A stretch of DNA of 8,114 nucleotides from a virus (lineage: Duplodnaviria; Heunggongvirae; Uroviricota; Caudoviricetes): IMG/VR virus record IMGVR_UViG_2700989165_000007; one strand, given 5' to 3'. Numbering within the stretch: the stretch's first letter is position 1; every line of letters starts with the position of its first letter. A program made the translations under genes and the position numbers. Below the pieces are notes generated by a model. The model was not told where the DNA came from and did not search any database. It was given only the letters and a program-made list of their open reading frames with translations. Below, one piece after another: positions 1-8,114 of the stretch.

Positions 1-58
1 TAAGACTATCACTTAAATAAGTGATACTGGTTGTCTGGAGATTCAGGGGGCCAGTCTA
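1..58 (-). mobile_element. IS2 terminal fragment (left inverted-repeat end; body of the element lies beyond the window start)
   Basis: Reverse complement of 1-58 reads TAGACTGGCCCCCTGAATCTCCAGACAACCAGTATCACTTATTTAAGTGATAGTCTTA, which I recognise as the IS2 left terminus. Match is from memory, not an alignment. Unrelated sequence starts at 59. Confidence 0.6.
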
Positions 59-600
59 GCAGCTGCTCTACGGTCATATTTTTAATTGCGCTCCGGTTTA
101 CAAGAGCCCACCCCTGTTTTTCCAGATAAAACTGGAAAGTATCCAGGGTACAGACCAGTGCACCGTCAGGAACAGTTTCGGTGAATCTGATATTGCCGTG
201 TTCGTCGAAGTGCACAACCAGAGTGCGACCGTTACCCGGAATCATCTTGTCAGCGGACGGGGTATTATTCTGGTGCAGTTCTGCCTCCATGCGGTCGAAC
301 ATCAGCGATGTAGGCCTCTTTGAATGCAGCGGCTTTTTTCCCAGTGAAGCCCATCACCAGGAAAACGAAGCCGTTTTTGGTGATTTGGTACATTGGGCGT
401 TTTTCGCCTTTGGTGTCGGTGTAGGTGACGTCCTCAAAATTGAGGGCGTTAAATTCAGGTGAGCATTCAGTATTTGCGATGGCACGTAACACATTGTCGT
501 GTCGTTTGTGGAAGAACTCTGCAACCGCAACAGACGTAGTGACAGCGCGACCGTTTTCGATGGTTACGTCAGGGTGAGAAAGGGCAGGGATAGTAGCCAT
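59..600 (-). pseudogene. Rha-family phage regulatory protein (antirepressor-like), frameshifted near 300 and 3'-truncated by the IS2 insertion
   Basis: Minus-strand ATG at 598-600 with GAGGA about 7 nt upstream. Translation (MATIPALSHPDVTIENGRAVTTSVAVAEFFHKRHDNVLRAI...FNALNFEDVTYTD...KNGFVFLVMGFTGKKAAAFKEAYIA) fits the phage pRha domain pattern. This frame stops at TAA 265-267, but the expected continuation (FDRMEAELHQ...) is in another frame (ORF 9..302), implying a 1-nt indel near 300-303. That frame then runs into IS2 sequence at 58, so the last ~16 codons are IS-derived. Confidence 0.6.
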
Positions 601-765
601 GATGGCATCCTCGAGTGATAAGTTAATTAACTCACCACCGAGGTTTTCCACGACCATAAGGGTGGTGAGACGTACAGGGGTGGAAATACCGGTCACTCGA
701 GAACCCGGCCAGTCTTGCGACTGCCCTGCACATCCCACCATAATTTGAATGGAGCTGTGCATTAC

Positions 766-796
766 GCATAAAAAAACCGCTTCAGCGCGGCTATGC
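766..796 (-). terminator. Candidate intrinsic-terminator-like hairpin followed by a T7 tract (minus-strand sense)
   Basis: Minus-strand sense reads CGCATA-GCCGCGCTGAAGCGG-TTTTTTT-ATGCG. Inner stem CCGC/GCGG (4 bp, extendable with A-U and G-U pairs), then seven T; outer arms CGCATA/TATGCG (766-771 and 792-797 on the plus strand) enclose it. The stem is short, so this is weak. Confidence 0.2.
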
Positions 797-1301
797 GCTC
801 GAGTAACGTTCGGGTTTCCACGCCCGGCCCCCGTTTTATGAGGTGCAGATGCACTATAATTCCACCCGTTCTGGTTTTCAATAGCTACATTCAACATTTT
901 CTCTTACCTTTCATCACCGAAGTGAACTTTGTTGATGCGGTGCCTGGTGCCTCCAGGTGACGTTAACCAGTTAACAATTAACGCCGGATACAGGGAAACC
1001 CATAACCACCCGATACGTGGGAACTAATCGCTTTTTAACTGTTCCGCGTGCGCTCAGCCGCATTCACCGCATCACAAAATTCACTTTAAAAAGGGCGGAC
1101 ATCAGCCAGCAATGAAACTGATGCCGCCAAAGGTACCAATCAACATGGAGTGTTGTGGCGTGGTTGTCACTTAAGCGTATGGTCAACCTGACAACCCGGT
1201 GTCCTCAACGGGGAAGGAATAACTCCGCCATACTTACCGCCGCGTCATTTCGCGTTGTGTGCCTGCTTTTAACTACGTCAGGCGAGGTGGTTCCTGTTAT
1301 T

Positions 1302-1349
1302 CCCCAACAACAAGAAATTTGTATAATCTGAATACCCCAACAATAAGAA
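1302..1349 (+). promoter_or_regulatory. Candidate promoter: TATAAT -10 hexamer (1322-1327) bracketed by two 15-bp direct repeats CCCCAACAA(C/T)AAGAA
   Basis: Perfect TATAAT at 1322-1327 about 50 nt upstream of the ORF starting at 1374. Direct repeats at 1302-1316 and 1335-1349 differ at one position. No convincing -35 hexamer was found. Confidence 0.25.
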
Positions 1350-1373
1350 GAGTGAGCAAGTGATGTATTAGCG

Positions 1374-1610
1374 ATGTCAGCTCTCAAAGAGACTGCATCA
1401 ATGTTAAAATTATTCAATGAAGCAAAAACTCAGGCTGAGGTTGATCGCGCTGTGTCTGAAATAAACTCTAAGTTGTCAAGCATTCAGCTTGAATATTTGT
1501 CTCTCATTGATGAGCTGACAATCTCTAAAAGCAATGAGGCTGCGCTCAAAGCAAAACTCACGGAGATAGAAAAGTTTAAGTTCCAAAGTGAAGACTGCGA
1601 ACCTCGCTAA
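1374..1610 (+). CDS. Hypothetical alpha-helical (coiled-coil-like) protein, 78 aa; probably the N-terminal part of a 148-codon ORF interrupted by an in-frame TAA
   Basis: ATG at 1374 (alternative ATG at 1401), K/E/L-rich helical-looking translation, stop TAA at 1608-1610. The next ORF begins at 1611 in the same frame. Region is visibly AT-rich relative to its flanks. Shine-Dalgarno is weak. Confidence 0.35.
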   Translation: MSALKETASMLKLFNEAKTQAEVDRAVSEINSKLSSIQLEYLSLIDELTISKSNEAALKAKLTEIEKFKFQSEDCEPR

Positions 1611-1820
1611 TTGATTACTGGAACGATTGTGTATGCCAGACAGTGCAATACTAGCTCTGGCAAGATTACCATGTATTTTTGTCCAGAATGTTTTGCGAAG
1701 AGAGCAATATCTATATTGCAACCTTTCCCTATCGAGGAAGGCGATAAATATACGAAAACTCAATGCCCCTCCTGTAAAAATGAGTATCTCATGGACTACA
1801 ATTTCAATAATGATTTTTGA
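1611..1820 (+). CDS. Hypothetical C4 zinc-ribbon protein (CPEC ... CPSC), 69 aa; may be the C-terminal part of the upstream ORF
   Basis: Same frame as 1374-1610, starting immediately after its TAA. Contains CxxC-x24-CxxC. As an independent gene it would need a TTG start at 1611 or ATG at 1671 with a poor ribosome-binding site. Confidence 0.3.
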   Translation: MITGTIVYARQCNTSSGKITMYFCPECFAKRAISILQPFPIEEGDKYTKTQCPSCKNEYLMDYNFNNDF

Positions 1821-2037
1821 GTCAAGGTATTCAGATTTTTAAAGAACATGCCGGATACTCACCCGTGTCCGGCGCACGCACTCCACCTCACCCGTGGAGA
1901 ACTCCTTAATTACCAACCTTGGCTTCGTTGGTTAGCCATTAACGCTGGTATGTAATCATTCTGGCAATGCTTAATTTGAAGTGGCACACTGAATTTGGCC
2001 ACCTGAACAGAGGTGATATGCTCACCTCAGAACAACA

Positions 2038-2561
2038 GTAAGCGCCCCATCAGCGACGTCTTGTGAAAATTGTCCTGTCTGGCAACAATCGCGCCCATCT
2101 ATATTGATGGACACGAACGATGAATTCCCAGACAACAAAAGATATTCCCTGCTTCCGTTCTTATTTGCCTGATGCCCTGCGTTTAAGATTTGAAGATAAA
2201 CTGACCATCCGGGCCATCGCTCAGCGTCTGGGTCTCAGTCATTCCACAATACATACGCTTTTTCAGCGATTTCTTGCATCCGGTATCGCATGGCCATTGC
2301 CCGATTCAGTTTCATTCGCTCAACTTGACGCCATCCTTTATGCCAACAGAAAGAAGGAATTAACAGAGCCTCAAATCAGAGAAGGCTCATGGCGAAAAGA
2401 ACGGCGAACCAGCTATAGCCGTGAATTTAAGGTCCGTCTGGCTAAGCAGGCATTACAGCCTGGGGCTGTTGTTGCCCGGATCGCCAGAGAACACGATATC
2501 AGGGATTTCAGTGCCCAGTACTCCCACCGGAACGTATATAGCATCCCCACAATTTTTCATT
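2038..2561 (+). mobile_element. IS element left end, IS66-family-like, with orfA; body of the element unresolved in the N-run
   Basis: Sequence from 2038 begins GTAAGCGCCCC; a terminal GTAAGCG is characteristic of IS66-family inverted repeats. An HTH transposase-accessory ORF starts 82 nt downstream. Family assignment is tentative and from memory. Confidence 0.35.
2120..2561 (+). CDS. IS transposase accessory protein (OrfA/TnpA-like, helix-turn-helix), partial; 3' end lost in the N-run
   Basis: Translation has two HTH-like segments: LTIRAIAQRLGLSHSTIHTLFQRF, and RRTSYSREFKVRLAKQALQPGAVVARIAREHDI. The second resembles the IS3/IS66 OrfA transposase_8 motif. The ORF runs without a stop into the Ns at 2562. 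Confidence 0.45.
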
Positions 2562-2904
2562 NNNNNNNNNNNNNNNNNNNNNNNNNNNNNNNNNNNNNNN
2601 NNNNNNNNNNNNNNNNNNNNNNNNNNNNNNNNNNNNNNNNNNNNNNNNNNNNNNNNNNNNNNNNNNNNNNNNNNNNNNNNNNNNNNNNNNNNNNNNNNNN
2701 NNNNNNNNNNNNNNNNNNNNNNNNNNNNNNNNNNNNNNNNNNNNNNNNNNNNNNNNNNNNNNNNNNNNNNNNNNNNNNNNNNNNNNNNNNNNNNNNNNNN
2801 NNNNNNNNNNNNNNNNNNNNNNNNNNNNNNNNNNNNNNNNNNNNNNNNNNNNNNNNNNNNNNNNNNNNNNNNNNNNNNNNNNNNNNNNNNNNNNNNNNNN
2901 NNNN
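2562..2904. other. Run of 343 N (unresolved or masked sequence); a second 10-N run at 2960-2969
   Basis: Directly visible. The X-filled ORFs in the track across this interval are artefacts. Confidence 0.99.
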
Positions 2905-2905
2905 C

Positions 2906-3089
2906 TCACTGGGCCGCCTGTCCCCGGTAGTCATGCTGGCAAAATCTGTCACAGCACAANNNNNNNNNNGCAGAACAGGAGGCGAAGCTGTTCACGTTTG
3001 AATGGAACGGTCGTATCTGGAATGCTGGTCCCGATTCACTGGGCCGCCTGTCCCCGGTAGTCATGCTGGCAAAATCTGTCACAGCACAA
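2906..3089. repeat. 54-bp exact direct repeat (2906-2959 and 3036-3089) flanking the 10-N gap
   Basis: TCACTGGGCCGCCTGTCCCCGGTAGTCATGCTGGCAAAATCTGTCACAGCACAA occurs twice, 130 bp apart. The first copy sits as an island between the two N runs. Confidence 0.9.
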
Positions 3090-3284
3090 ACACATATGGC
3101 GTGGAGCGATGCCGATAATCAGCAGGTGAAACTGTCGATGCCGGAACTGGAAGAACTGGCGGCAGCAATGGTGCAGGCGCAGGTCGATCGCAACGATGAG
3201 ATTTATCGCCGTCAGCGGGAGCTGAAGGAAGAGCTGAATAGTCTGAAGGATTTGAATTCGGTTAGGAATTTTATCGTGGAATAA
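2970..3284 (+). CDS. Phage-module protein, C-terminal fragment (possibly tail-fibre-assembly/DUF4376-like); 5' end lost in the gap
   Basis: Open frame from the gap edge to TAA at 3282-3284: ...FEWNGRIWNAGPDSLGRLSPVVMLAKSVTAQTHMAWSDADNQQVKLSMPELEELAAAMVQAQVDRNDEIYRRQRELKEELNSLKDLNSVRNFIVE. The W.DADN..V.L...EL..LA motif is reminiscent of tail-fibre-assembly-like C-termini. The family call is weak. Confidence 0.3.
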   Translation, partial: AEQEAKLFTFEWNGRIWNAGPDSLGRLSPVVMLAKSVTAQTHMAWSDADNQQVKLSMPELEELAAAMVQAQVDRNDEIYRRQRELKEELNSLKDLNSVRNFIVE

Positions 3285-3292
3285 CAGAAGCT

Positions 3293-3321
3293 GCGGCACG
3301 TCGTATGCAGGAACGTGCCGC
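3293..3321. terminator. Perfect 9-bp inverted-repeat hairpin (GCGGCACGT / ACGTGCCGC, 11-nt loop) between convergent genes
   Basis: Lies 9 nt after the plus-strand stop at 3284 and 164 nt past the minus-strand sitD stop. No flanking U-tract on either strand, so intrinsic-terminator function is uncertain. Confidence 0.3.
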
Positions 3322-3484
3322 GGTTGGCTGGTAAACTTTCGATAGTGCGAGTATTGAATGATTTCTAGGCGTTATCGATTTTACGTATTTTTTGCATGAT
3401 AGAATTCGTACCTCCTCCCAACGACCTTCCATGGCTTTCCGGACTTCTGTAGGCTGGCGGACGATGCTGTCCTCGGATGTTGTG

Positions 3485-4342
3485 CTAATTGGGTGATAAC
3501 AGATCCTGTGTATGGGCGTTTCCCTTTGTGCGTGCGTTGATGCTGGTAACGGTAAACGTCATGATGAACACGACCGCGAATAAGACGACAATCGTCGGAG
3601 CTGGTGCGCTGTCGATAAAAAAGGACAGCCAGACACCAGTCATTGACACTATTACCGATATGCCAGTCGCCAGTAGGAGCGCAATATGAAAGCGTTGTGT
3701 CAGGAGTACTGCAATGGCGCCAGGCGCAATGAGCAGAGAAATAGAGAGAATGATACCTACTGCTTTCAGCGTCGCCACAATGGTCAGGGAAACCATGCAC
3801 AGCAGCCCATAATGCAGCCATCTCGTATGCAAACCGCTTACCTGCGCCTGTTGATAATCAAAGCTGAACAGCAAAAAATCCCGCCATTTTACGCTAATAA
3901 CAAGTGTAACCAGCCCGGCAATAATCACCGTCTGGATTATATCGCCGATGGTTATCCCGAGCATGTCGCCGAAAAGAATATGGTCAAGATGTACGTCTGG
4001 TTTAATTGCAATATACAAGATCAGACCTGCGGCAAACATGCCAGAAAAAACAATCCCCATAACTGTATCTTGCTTGATTCGGCTGTTGTCTTTCAGGTAT
4101 CCCGTCGCCACCGCGCAGAATACTCCGGCGACGAATGCCCCTGTAGCCAGAGGTAACCCCAGAATCCAGGTAAGCACGATGCCAGGAAAAACCGCATGAC
4201 TCATCGCGTCACCCATCAGTGCCCAACCTTTCAGGACCAGAAAGACCGACAGCAGCGCACAGGGTATGGAAACTACCAGTGAAATCAGCAGTGCGTGACT
4301 CATAAAGGTGAACTGCAGTGGCTCCAGTAATAATGCCATCAT
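3485..4342 (-). CDS. sitD: Mn/Fe ABC transporter permease SitD (ABC-3 family membrane protein)
   Basis: 285 aa, highly hydrophobic multi-helix translation. Start overlaps the sitC stop in an ATGA arrangement (4339-4342). Last gene of a four-gene binding-protein/ATPase/permease/permease operon. Confidence 0.85.
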   Translation of the reverse strand: MMALLLEPLQFTFMSHALLISLVVSIPCALLSVFLVLKGWALMGDAMSHAVFPGIVLTWILGLPLATGAFVAGVFCAVATGYLKDNSRIKQDTVMGIVFSGMFAAGLILYIAIKPDVHLDHILFGDMLGITIGDIIQTVIIAGLVTLVISVKWRDFLLFSFDYQQAQVSGLHTRWLHYGLLCMVSLTIVATLKAVGIILSISLLIAPGAIAVLLTQRFHIALLLATGISVIVSMTGVWLSFFIDSAPAPTIVVLFAVVFIMTFTVTSINARTKGNAHTQDLLSPN

Positions 4343-5196
4343 GAGCGATCCTCCAGCGCTTTATGCGCACGCCGACGATTTGCCAAAAGTCCATGGGTGG
4401 GCGCAAATACAAATGCTAAAAGAAACAGCAGTGTCTGCGCCACCACGATGATTCCACCTGTCGCGCCGTCCAGAAAGTAACTGACCCACGCGCCGAGGAA
4501 ACTGGTTACACTGCCAATAGTTACAGCAATTATGAGCAGGCGGGGAAAACGATCGGTTAACAACCATGCTGTTGCACCGGGAGTCACCACCAGACAGATC
4601 ACCAGAAACGCACCAACCGTTTGCAGCGCCGCAACGGTCGAAACCGACAGCAGGGTGAAGAAGAGGATTTTTAATCTGCCCGGATGTAATCCAATAGCAC
4701 GGGCGTGATTCTCGTCGAAAAAGGTCACCATAAGATCTTTCCATTTGAAAAAAAGCACGATGATCGAGAGAATGCCAATGATAGTGAGTTGCAGGATATC
4801 CGCCGGATCGATTGCCAGAATATTGCCCAGGACGATGGTCTGAATGTTCACGGATGTCGGGTTCAATGACACCATAAACAGCCCCAGGCCAAAAAAGGAC
4901 GAGAAGATCAGGCCGATGATGGCATCTTCTTTTAAGCGGGTGCGTTGGTTAAGAAACAGCATGCTGCCCGCTGCCAGTCCGCCGGAAAAGAAGGCTCCCA
5001 GAGAAAACGGAAGCCCCAGCATATATGCCCCCGCAACACCCGGGACAATAGAGTGCGACAGCGCATCGCCAATCAGCGACCAGCCTTTTAGCATCAGATA
5101 GCATGACAGGAAAGCGCAGAGACCGCCGACCATTGCCGAGACCCACATCGCATTGAGCATATATTCATAGCTGAAGGGTTCCAGTAGCACGTTCAT
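4339..5196 (-). CDS. sitC: Mn/Fe ABC transporter permease SitC (ABC-3 family membrane protein)
   Basis: 285 aa hydrophobic protein, paralogous in pattern to the downstream permease. ATGA overlap with the sitB stop (5193-5196). Confidence 0.85.
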
Positions 5197-6020
5197 CTTG
5201 CTTCCCTCTGCACCGCTGACGGTCGATGTGCCACAAAAGGGCGTTCATCGTCAGTAATAATGCTTTCTTCCGAGCCGTTAAGTGTGACATGGCGCAGTAC
5301 GCCGCTAAAAGCCAGCTCCAGGTTCTCGGCTGTAAAAGTGGTGTCTGTCGGCCCGCTTGCCAGGACGGTGCCTTTGACCATGACCGTATAATCGCAAAAT
5401 GTCGTGACTGAGCCGAGATTGTGCGTTGAGACAAGCATCGTTTTGCCTTCCGCGCGTAACTCCCTCAACAGGCTGATGATTTTCGCTTCGGTTTTCACAT
5501 CAACGCCGGTAAAAGGTTCATCCAGCAGGATCACATCACCCTGCTGTGCAATTGCTCTCGCCAGAAAGACGCGTTTCTTTTGTCCACCGGAAAGCTCGCC
5601 GATTTGACGATGGCGAAAATCCACCATATCGACACGTTCCAGCGCATCGGTGACAATCTGACGATCCCTCTTTTTGGCTATACGCAACATACCCATATGC
5701 CCATAGCGGCCCATCATCACCACATCTTCCACCAGTACAGGAAATGACCAGTCAACCTCTTCTGACTGAGGGACGTAGGCAACCAGGTTTTTCTGTAGCG
5801 CCTGTCGCGTGGGAATACCCAGAACAGATATCTTTCCGCTGGTCAGACGCACAAATCCCATAATCGCTTTAAACAACGTCGATTTTCCGGAACCGTTTAC
5901 CCCAACCAGAGCGGCAATAGATCCACTTGGTACTGTGAAGGATGCATCGCGCAGTGCTGTGTGCCCGTTACGCCAGGTGACAGTAACATCATTAACGACA
6001 ATGCCTGCAGATTGCATCAT
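5193..6020 (-). CDS. sitB: Mn/Fe ABC transporter ATP-binding protein SitB
   Basis: 275 aa with Walker A (GVNGSGKST), ABC signature (LSGGQKKR) and Walker B ([11 protein letters not shown]). GGGAGAA ribosome-binding site inside the 3' end of sitA. Start overlaps the sitA stop by 1 nt. Confidence 0.9.
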
Positions 6021-6934
6021 TATTTCTCCCTTTTCCCGGCTTTAATTCCCTGTACCAGCGTACTGGTAGTAACCTTAAGAAGGTCGATATACGTAGGTAC
6101 CGGGCCGTTTTCTGTGCTCAGGGAATCGACATAGAGCACACCGCCGTAGTGTGCGCCGGTTTCACGCGCAACCTGACGCGCTGGTTTATCGGAAATCGTA
6201 CTCTCGCTAAAGACTGCCGGGATATGATTTTTCTTAACTATATCAACAACCTTACGTACCTGCTGCGGTGTTCCTTGTTGATCGGCATTAATCGGCCACA
6301 GATAAAGCTCTTTTAGCCCCAAATCGCGTGCGAGATAAGAAAAAGCCCCTTCACTGGTGACCATCCATCGCTGATTCTCAGGGAGTTCCGTAATCTGCTT
6401 ACGCAGGGGGGCAAGGGTTTGGGTAATCTTGGCTTTATAAGTATCGGCATTACGTTGGTAGGTTTGTGCATTTGCCGGATCGTATTTTATCAACGCATCA
6501 CGAATATTATCGACGTAAATCAGAGCATTATCTGGCGACATCCATGCATGGGGATTAGGTTTGCCCTCATAGGGTCCTTCGGTGATCCCTACTGGCGTCA
6601 CACCCGAAGAGACAATTACTTCTGGAACCCCATTGAGATGCTGGTAAAAGCGTTGGAACCACAATTCCAGATTCATACCATTGGCGAGAATCAGTTGTGC
6701 CCCCTGCGCACGTTTAATATCGCCAGGGGTAGGCTGATACTCATGAATTTCTGCACCAGGCTTGGTTATGGATGAGACTTCTGCAGCATCTCCAGCCACG
6801 TTTTTGGCCATATCCGCGATGATGGTAAATGTTGTAATGACCTTGAATTTTTCAGTTGCACTTGCCTGAAATGCGATCGAGCAGGTGAGGGCGAGGCACC
6901 CCAAGAGCATGGTTACTTTTTTTATTGAGTGCAT
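6020..6934 (-). CDS. sitA: Periplasmic Mn/Fe-binding protein SitA (TroA-like cluster A-I substrate-binding protein)
   Basis: 304 aa with an N-terminal signal peptide ([26 protein letters not shown]). Gene order and sizes (304/275/285/285) fit SitABCD. The symbol is assigned from recognition, not a search. Confidence 0.85.
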
Positions 6935-7143: not shown

Positions 7144-7215
7144 GGCAAAAATGGGGCAAAACGCTGTATAAGGGGCAAAAAAGGGGCAAAAAAGGGGCAA
7201 AAAAGGGGCAAAAAA
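7144..7215 (+). repeat. GGGGCAAAAAA tandem array: four perfect 11-bp units (7172-7215) plus degenerate copies at 7144-7151 and 7153-7161
   Basis: Directly visible. The A6 tracts recur every 11 bp, in phase with the helical repeat. Confidence 0.9.
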
Positions 7216-7220
7216 GAGTG

Positions 7221-7428
7221 GGTTATCGTAGCTTATTGTTGTCGCTGATAATGTTTAACATATTGAAAAATAAATAAAATACTTATGAGTCAGATAGTTG
7301 TGATTTTTGCCCTTACTTGTTCAGGTCGTATTGTTCTTTCTTTGTAATTTGTTGATTTTCTTGCATTATTTCAGTTCTCTGGTACTAAATGGGGCAAATT
7401 GGGGGCAAACTTTGCAACTACGATAACC
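7221..7428. repeat. 11-bp inverted repeat pair GGTTATCGTAG (7221-7231) and CTACGATAACC (7418-7428)
   Basis: Exact reverse complements. Each arm lies just 3' of a GGGGCAAA cluster. The right arm contains the integrase stop codon (7418-7420). Confidence 0.85.
7391..7409 (+). repeat. Two further GGGGCAAA copies (7391-7398 and 7401-7409); an inverted copy TTTTTGCCC sits at 7305-7313
   Basis: Same motif as the tandem array, about 180 bp away, just upstream of the integrase stop codon. Confidence 0.85.
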
Positions 7429-8057
7429 GCGCATTCAACATGGCTATCTGTTCGTCGTTCATGTCATCAATCCACATACCGTAAATTTCATACACCATTT
7501 GCGCAGTTTCATGCCCCATCTGGCTGGCTATAAATGCCGGGTTCGCTCCTGCCGTCAACAGCCAGCAGGCAAAAGTATGTCGCGTGTGGTACGGATTACG
7601 GCGGCGAATACCAGCACGTTTTACTGCTGCATTCCATCTTGTACCCAAACTGCTTACCGAGTAATAAGGTTTCTGTTTTTCGTTACACACCCTGGGCATG
7701 AAAACAAAATGCAGTTTTTGTTTTTCAGTTCTGCCGTACTCCCGATGATAAAAAGTGATTTCGCTTTTGCGATGATGCCCGGTCAGTTTGTATTGCTCCT
7801 TCAGTGCTTCAAGAGCCGGCTGCAGTAATGTTACCGTCCGGATCCCGGCATTTGTTTTTGGGGGACCGAACATATCAAGTATCGTCAGGTTTCTTCTGAC
7901 ATTCACAATTCCCTTCTCGAAATCCACATCCTCCCACGCCAGAGCTGCCAGTTCCCCGTGACGAAGCCCGGAGTAAACGGCAAATTTCCACAAGTTTTGG
8001 CTCTGTCCTTTTTCACTTTCCATTAATGCATTGAATTCTGTTTTAGATAACGGGTCA
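7418..8057 (-). pseudogene. Tyrosine recombinase (phage integrase) C-terminal catalytic domain; N-terminal part removed by the IS1 insertion
   Basis: Translation carries integrase catalytic-domain motifs (SGLRHGELAALAWEDVD; HTRHTFACWLL; VYEIYGMW). Only about 213 native codons remain. The apparent TTG start at 8069-8071 is inside IS1 sequence, and an in-frame stop lies at 8081-8083. Confidence 0.7.
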
Positions 8058-8114
8058 GGTAATGCTGCCAACTTACTGATTTAGTGTATGATGGTGATTT
8101 TAAGGTGCTTGCGT
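8058..8114 (+). mobile_element. IS1 terminal fragment (inverted-repeat end; element continues beyond the window end)
   Basis: GGTAATGCTGCCAACTTACTGATTTAGTGTATGATGGTG matches the IS1 terminal inverted repeat and adjacent sequence as I recall it, with isoform-level differences. Confidence 0.7.

Follow-up and report, generated by a model that had tools for sequence, protein, structure and literature searches.

The locus considered here raises the question of whether two short, abutting reading frames on the plus strand of a prophage-derived stretch of DNA are two genes or the halves of one, and what such a gene would have encoded. The window (i.e. the whole stretch that was analysed, 8,114 nt, IMG/VR record IMGVR_UViG_2700989165_000007) had been described beforehand from its letters alone, and this preliminary description wavered between a recently inactivated gene and a tightly coupled two-gene module, for which it could name no known family. 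We consider it very probable that the locus is a pseudogene of a Rip1-family anti-phage gene, in a moron cassette that a degraded lambdoid prophage of the Rac/Qin type carries in its early-left region, on a Shigella flexneri-type chromosome.

The frame pair and its nonsense codon

The features on which the question turns are the following:

1363-1371, plus strand: remnant of the ancestral start, ATG TAT TAG, recognised by alignment with E. coli VL40, WGI31CT and PSJ-22
1374-1610 (codons 1374-1607), plus strand: reading frame of the N-terminal half, ATG start, 78 codons (78 aa)
1608-1610, plus strand: TAA nonsense codon in place of Gln79 (Gln86 when counted along the 155-aa form)
1611-1820, plus strand: reading frame of the C-terminal half, 69 codons plus the stop codon 1818-1820
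1680-1775, plus strand: zinc knuckles CPEC (1680-1691) and CPSC (1764-1775), cysteines invariant in the family

In the window sequence both reading frames lie in one and the same frame, with the TAA at 1608-1610 as their sole separator; read through, they give a polypeptide of 148 aa with a helical N-terminal half and a CxxC-x24-CxxC pattern in its C-terminal half (cysteine codons 1680-1682, 1689-1691, 1764-1766 and 1773-1775), exactly as had been described. The apparent TTG start of the second frame is a mere leucine codon after the stop, since the program that listed the reading frames takes the first ATG, GTG or TTG following a stop.

The cassette that holds the pair is carried by four E. 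coli chromosomes (RMDEC465, VL40, WGI31CT and PSJ-22) at 94-99% DNA identity, and the codon equivalent to 1608-1610, at which the preliminary description had proposed to look for a sense codon in related genomes, is CAA (Gln) in 4/4. RMDEC465 has a single intact coding sequence of 148 aa, VL40 and WGI31CT have one of 155 aa each (the intact VL40 allele encodes WP_052327206.1), and PSJ-22 has kept the CAA, yet two other independent nonsense codons break its gene of the 155-aa form. As judged from these alignments, 1374-1820 is a single gene, broken at 1608-1610 by a CAA-to-TAA transition (one C-to-T change). The earlier suggestion of an ochre mutation is thus upheld, and that of a two-gene module falls, since the family consistently shows a single gene of about 150 aa across both halves. 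Furthermore, the TAA is no read error of the window, since the 40-mer that contains it occurs in identical form in two independent assemblies (S. flexneri SFBU1023 and ECMA0423, the latter 4.44 Mb and labelled E. coli).

The nonsense codon is accompanied by a second lesion at the 5' end of the gene, where a 10-bp deletion (TTGATCTATC, between 1366 and 1367), common to the window and RMDEC465, has removed the ancestral N-terminus MFDLSLA. By shifting the frame, this deletion turned the ancestral start into a two-codon dead end (ATG TAT TAG), so that the internal methionine at 1374 must serve in its place. Moreover, SFBU1023 and ECMA0423 combine the TAA allele with a +1 insertion of A after window position 1501. 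The order of lesions, as read from this distribution of alleles, is the 10-bp deletion, then CAA to TAA (window), then the frameshift (SFBU1023 and ECMA0423). The adjoining prophage genes are broken too (the Rha gene is frameshifted, ydfC is cut by an insertion sequence and the integrase is fragmentary), and in its three steps the decay illustrates on a small scale how a prophage that has become defunct loses a defence gene.

Kinship with Rip1 and the proposed loss of defence

The homology searches that had been recommended for the read-through and for each half gave concordant matches to phrog_1244 and to Rip1. The PHROGs profile phrog_1244 (157 positions, unknown function) is colinear with the read-through (E = 5.5e-34), its positions 9-82 corresponding to the N-terminal half and 90-146 to the C-terminal one. 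An exhaustive HMMER search recovered 243 representatives at E <= 1e-3, nearly all of 145-175 aa and aligned across both halves; a word-indexed protein search returned two proteins only. Single-gene homologues were found by tblastn in HK620 (hkaP), HK629/HK630, HK446, Klebsiella phages, Pseudomonas phage D3112 (orf25) and a Rhodobacter phage. Within an alignment of 105 members the four cysteines are the only invariant columns (Y82, G90, Y94 and L122 being nearly invariant), and HK446 Rip1 has all four cysteines of this putative metal site, as does the window. Against chain L of PDB 9oox ('ring interacting pore 1 (Rip1)') the family profile scored E = 6.5e-39, its positions 4-150 falling on 14-160 of the chain, and the window read-through alone scored E = 2.6e-7; hhalign placed HK446 gp37 in the family with 99.9% probability (E = 1.5e-33, 146 columns). 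The N-terminal half of the window aligns to residues ~15-94 of HK446 Rip1 and the C-terminal half to residues 95-160. The missing family assignment and the candidate undescribed function of the preliminary description therefore give way to a family (Rip1) whose structure has been solved (9oox).

The predicted fold points the same way. An AlphaFold2 model of an intact Salmonella relative (P0001, 88% identical; mean pLDDT 93) comprises helices at 4-23 and 27-79 and thereafter a beta-rich domain with strands between 83 and 149, the predicted order of parts being that of the Rip1 cryo-EM structure. The structure prediction that had been suggested for a zinc-ribbon fold thus shows, for this relative, a helical half and a beta-rich C-terminal half. 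As a gauge of amphipathic N-terminal helices, the maximum helical hydrophobic moment (0.44, against 0.43 +/- 0.08 in shuffles) is unremarkable, but it is equally so in the genuine HK446 Rip1 (0.42) and does not discriminate. Neither half, nor an intact relative, gave more than sub-threshold zinc-ribbon and coiled-coil noise in Pfam, NCBIfam and PADLOC; PADLOC-DB v2 (2023), with zero matches, is a library older than the description of Rip1. The literature searched on hkaP, D3112 orf25 and phrog_1244 yielded no functional data.

The mechanism of Rip1 was described by Patel et al. (Nature 651:1060, 2026), whom we cite through a review (PMC13434031); a meeting report also summarises it. According to the review, intact Rip1 is harmless on its own, and the trigger is the small-terminase or portal ring of the infecting phage, made late in infection. 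Twelve Rip1 monomers surround an 11-mer small-terminase ring, which they contact through their C-terminal half, and the N-terminal amphipathic helices form a pore by which the inner membrane is breached and the infection aborted (PMC13434031). Liposomes leak their dye when exposed to the Rip1 complexes, and the membranes of infected cells lose their integrity before the phage has finished maturing. Escapers are mutated in the portal, in the case of Pseudomonas phages, or in the small terminase, in the case of E. coli phages, as stated in the same review (PMC13434031).

Projected onto the window, the N-terminal half (1374-1607) would be the counterpart of the helical, pore-forming part of Rip1 (amphipathic according to the literature), and the C-terminal half (1611-1820), a beta-rich putative zinc ribbon, that of the part in contact with the phage ring. 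In the P0001 model the stop (at Gln79) comes after the long helix and before the first beta strands, and a stop exactly between the helical and the ring-binding half would mean that the former is made without the sensor and assembly half. The 78-aa product would then lack the sensor/oligomerisation domain and the zinc ribbon would not be translated from the start of the gene, which would leave the defence non-functional; on the strength of this domain split, the defence is most likely inactive in the window genome. The window holds no uninterrupted polypeptide that joins the sensor and pore halves, and since the TAA splits the halves and the ancestral start is deleted, we file the locus as a Rip1 pseudogene and not as a working member. 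A defence module, which had been put forward earlier as a possibility, agrees with the published function of the Rip1 family, and we infer by homology the trigger, and even the defence activity, of the window subfamily (~25% identity to HK446 Rip1).

The two fragments could also form a functional split system, in which a helical protein and a zinc-ribbon protein, produced by termination and reinitiation (at the TTG 1611 or at an internal ATG), act together or separately; the helical fragment could, for example, be an inhibitor of, or a decoy for, other Rip1 proteins. Such a reading would draw on the TTG immediately after the stop, on the position of the break exactly at the domain boundary of the model (so that each half could fold alone) and on the occurrence of the TAA allele in at least three genomes. 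However, no homologue is split and all close relatives have CAA, no Shine-Dalgarno-like sequence was seen in the 20 nt that precede 1611, and the stop is followed by T, TAA-T being a strong termination context in E. coli. Moreover, the other two genomes with the TAA are frameshifted in the N-terminal half, which would be unexpected under selection, and the published model needs ring binding and pore formation in one chain (PMC13434031). We regard a split system as very unlikely.

A protein of another kind, i.e. a SieB-like superinfection-exclusion protein or a zinc-finger regulator of the DksA/TraR type in place of a Rip1-type pore, is suggested by the HK620 record, which labels hkaP (located between N and cIII on the opposite strand) a 'putative superinfection exclusion protein', and by the superficially similar layout of a coiled coil and a C4 zinc site in DksA/TraR. 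SieB is a membrane protein, whereas the window protein has no hydrophobic segment (maximum Kyte-Doolittle mean over 19 residues 0.72) and so is not a SieB-like membrane protein; on the other hand, no Pfam match above threshold to zf-dskA_traR or to any other family was obtained, and Rip1 is the only strong match in both sequence and fold. Either identity is, in our view, extremely unlikely.

Programmed read-through or recoding of the TAA, which would supply the full 148-aa protein at a low and regulated level, is exceedingly improbable: the downstream frame is still intact in the window, but this is to be expected after a recent mutation anyway, the stop is not conserved (CAA in the relatives), no recoding signal is apparent and the lineage gathers further lesions. 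That the frames are spurious, or the stop an assembly or sequencing error, has next to no likelihood, as nothing besides their small size speaks for it and both the strong family homology and the same TAA allele in two independent complete assemblies speak against it. On the evidence given for each, we reject all of these alternatives, namely a two-gene module, read-through, a SieB-like or DksA-like protein and an artefact, and adopt a broken Rip1-family gene as the identification.

The cassette, its repeats and its surroundings

The gene lies in a compact insert with the following parts and neighbours:

1093-1141, minus strand: DicF-like small RNA with terminator (Rfam RF00039, E = 8e-6, sub-threshold at 38.8 bits against a gathering score of 48)
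1257-1849, plus strand: AT-rich moron cassette with the Rip1-family gene, between the DicF-like RNA/dicB side and ydfC
1302-1316, plus strand: first copy of the direct repeat, CCCCAACAACAAGAA, upstream of the -10 element
1322-1327, plus strand: -10 hexamer TATAAT (consensus) of a putative promoter, with a weak -35 (at most 3/6)
1335-1349, plus strand: second copy of the direct repeat, CCCCAACAATAAGAA, downstream of the -10 element
1325-1336, unstranded: left arm of an inverted repeat, AATCTGAATACC, perfect over 12 nt and overlapping the -10 element
1826-1837, unstranded: right arm of the inverted repeat, GGTATTCAGATT, 6 nt past the stop codon
1850-1873, unstranded: backbone hairpin, GCCGGATACTCACCCGTGTCCGGC, directly right of the cassette and present in the empty slot too
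1939-1975, minus strand: 3' remnant of ydfC (coordinates transferred from the annotated ydfC of RMDEC465), cut by an insertion sequence at 1975/1976

The limits of the cassette were obtained by aligning the slot with that of phage vB_EcoS-689R5 (empty), E. coli GB089 (paralogous cassette) and PPompW prophages (unrelated cargo), which placed the homology breakpoints at ~1256/1257 and ~1849/1850; as the backbone homology ends at ~1256 and resumes at ~1850, 1257-1849 is a moron cassette that can be present or absent. Its GC content (38.6%, against 48.7% in the rest of the window) makes it the only stretch of the window below 42% GC besides the spacer between sitA and the integrase, and substantiates the AT-richness relative to the flanks that had been noted at the outset. 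The neighbours of the slot are on the minus strand (to the left the DicF-like RNA, with a terminator-like hairpin at 1125-1098, and then dicB or Rha; to the right ydfC-ydfB-ydfA and the repressor), opposite to the cassette on the plus strand. Present or absent at a fixed prophage slot and equipped with its own -10 element, the cassette agrees with Rip1 as a single-gene prophage moron; the earlier proposal of a horizontally acquired moron holds in the same terms. The 5' region of the cassette was detected in 77/5426 E. coli genomes; its identity is for the most part 90-95%, as it is for GB089.

A comparable position is occupied by the intact relatives, since HK446 gp37 is flanked by N on one side and the anti-restriction/cIII genes on the other, and HK620 hkaP by N and cIII, both on the opposite strand. 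The variable slot of the window matches the N-cIII slot of HK446 Rip1 as its equivalent. D3112 orf25 is found between the genes for the small and the large terminase, the position that the review gives for Pseudomonas Rip1 as well (PMC13434031).

The TATAAT at 1322-1327 does lie, as first described, between two 15-bp direct repeats, which are 14/15 identical (16/18 over 1299-1316 and 1332-1349) and for which 0/200 shuffles held two such matches. The hexamer is conserved in every cassette that was aligned. A strict two-hexamer promoter scan left it uncalled because of the weak -35, and its promoter activity is therefore something we infer. The direct repeats are conserved in the GB089 cassette (whose coding region has diverged to 41% protein identity) and in other relatives. 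The self-regulation that had been ascribed to the locus found no counterpart in our analysis, which detected no DNA-binding domain and no link of the repeats to the protein. The reading frame is furthermore bracketed by the inverted repeat (1325-1336 and 1826-1837); a non-overlapping 12-mer inverted repeat arose in 11/1000 shuffles, and the GB089 cassette displays a matched A-to-G / T-to-C change in both arms. It could be that this repeat serves RNA pairing in a minus-strand read-through transcript, or that it is a recombination signal. We see a slim chance that the break at the domain boundary is more than decay and that the free 78-aa helical fragment, or a reinitiated zinc-ribbon one, may keep a function (e.g. 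as a dominant inhibitor or decoy against pores of the Rip1 type, to the benefit of the cell or of resident prophages; esc, the product of internal initiation in P22 sieB, offers an analogy) and, as a separate matter, that the direct repeats and the inverted repeat might be a regulatory or cassette-exchange signal for the Rip1 morons of the dicB-ydfC slot.

Several observations concern the backbone next to the cassette. A 10-nt direct repeat (CTCACCCGTG, 1858-1867 and 1887-1896) lies inside and just beyond the hairpin at 1850-1873; it belongs to the prophage backbone, and the region of both copies is present in the empty slot too. The DicF-like RNA segment (1093-1141) differs markedly from the canonical DicF at the equivalent place in GB089 and phage 689R5, and differs from S. 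flexneri SFBU1023 as well. Further to the left, a C4 antisense RNA (658-745, minus strand, 76.7 bits) and isrK (770-846, minus strand, 59.6 bits), both above the Rfam gathering scores, are situated upstream of a Rha/Ash-type regulatory gene (reading frames 265-897 and 9-341, minus strand), in an arrangement that resembles the immI-like antirepressor control module of P1/P7; compared with the intact RMDEC465 protein of 282 aa, the Rha-type gene has a frameshift near 300-340.

To the right of the junction at 1975/1976, positions 1975-2037 match an IS911 end at 100%, and a chimeric transposase-like reading frame (2120-3001, HTH_Tnp_1) is interrupted by a masked run of N at ~2560-2900. Between the insertion sequence and the sit operon there is a 73-aa reading frame with a DUF4376 domain (3063-3284, plus strand), which we take as a candidate for a stranded prophage fragment of the tail-fibre-assembly type, and a weak, sub-threshold match to the Shigella small RNA CssrB (3267-3322). 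The four overlapping or abutting reading frames of 285, 285, 275 and 304 aa at 3485-6934 (minus strand) are, from the look of their sequences, presumably a putative sitABCD-type Mn/Fe ABC transporter operon inside the prophage remnant. The spacer that separates the sitA-like gene from the integrase fragment is rich in AT and strongly G-skewed; it contains a perfect tandem repeat (7170-7216, 4.3 copies of the 11-nt unit AAGGGGCAAAA), and is followed by a phage-integrase-family reading frame (7418-8071, minus strand, 216 aa, TTG start) that comprises the catalytic domain only and is probably truncated at its 5' end.

Comparison with known systems

The Rip1 family is already known, and the locus is an ordinary, divergent and pseudogenised member of it; loose ends are confined to the conserved direct repeats flanking the promoter and the inverted repeat at either end of the reading frame. 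For annotation, this means that the 'hypothetical protein' met with widely in enterobacterial prophages (phrog_1244, HK620 hkaP and the genes of the dicB-ydfC slot) can now be named as Rip1-family defence, and that the Shigella-type copy of the window should be labelled a pseudogene.

Four points of comparison are at hand. SieB (lambda, P22 and Rac) is an abortive-infection gene of the early-left region that is expressed from the prophage; the window gene is alike in its early-left placement but has no sequence or fold relationship with it (Pfam, NCBIfam and PHROG give no link between the two) and its product is without the hydrophobic segment. HK620 hkaP, HK630 gp40 and D3112 orf25 (phrog_1244) share with the window gene the family, the architecture and the orientation against the neighbours, and differ in being intact and only 25-29% identical to the window protein. 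The paralogue of the GB089 type (WP_000559912.1, 151 aa), to which most of the 77 of 5426 E. coli genomes with the 5' region of the cassette belong, occupies the very slot of the window cassette and has a near-identical promoter region, both direct repeats and the same 3' flank, whereas it is intact and its coding region is only 41% identical in protein. Lastly, HK446 Rip1 (gp37, YP_007111990, PDB 9oox; Rip1 is known also from P. aeruginosa prophages) is ~25% identical to the window protein; it has a Gly/Ala-rich start and lies in the N-cIII slot of an HK97-type phage, whereas the window protein has a shorter N-terminus without such a start, and its gene, in the DicF/dicB-ydfC slot of a Rac/Qin-type prophage, is disrupted by a 5' deletion as well as a nonsense codon.
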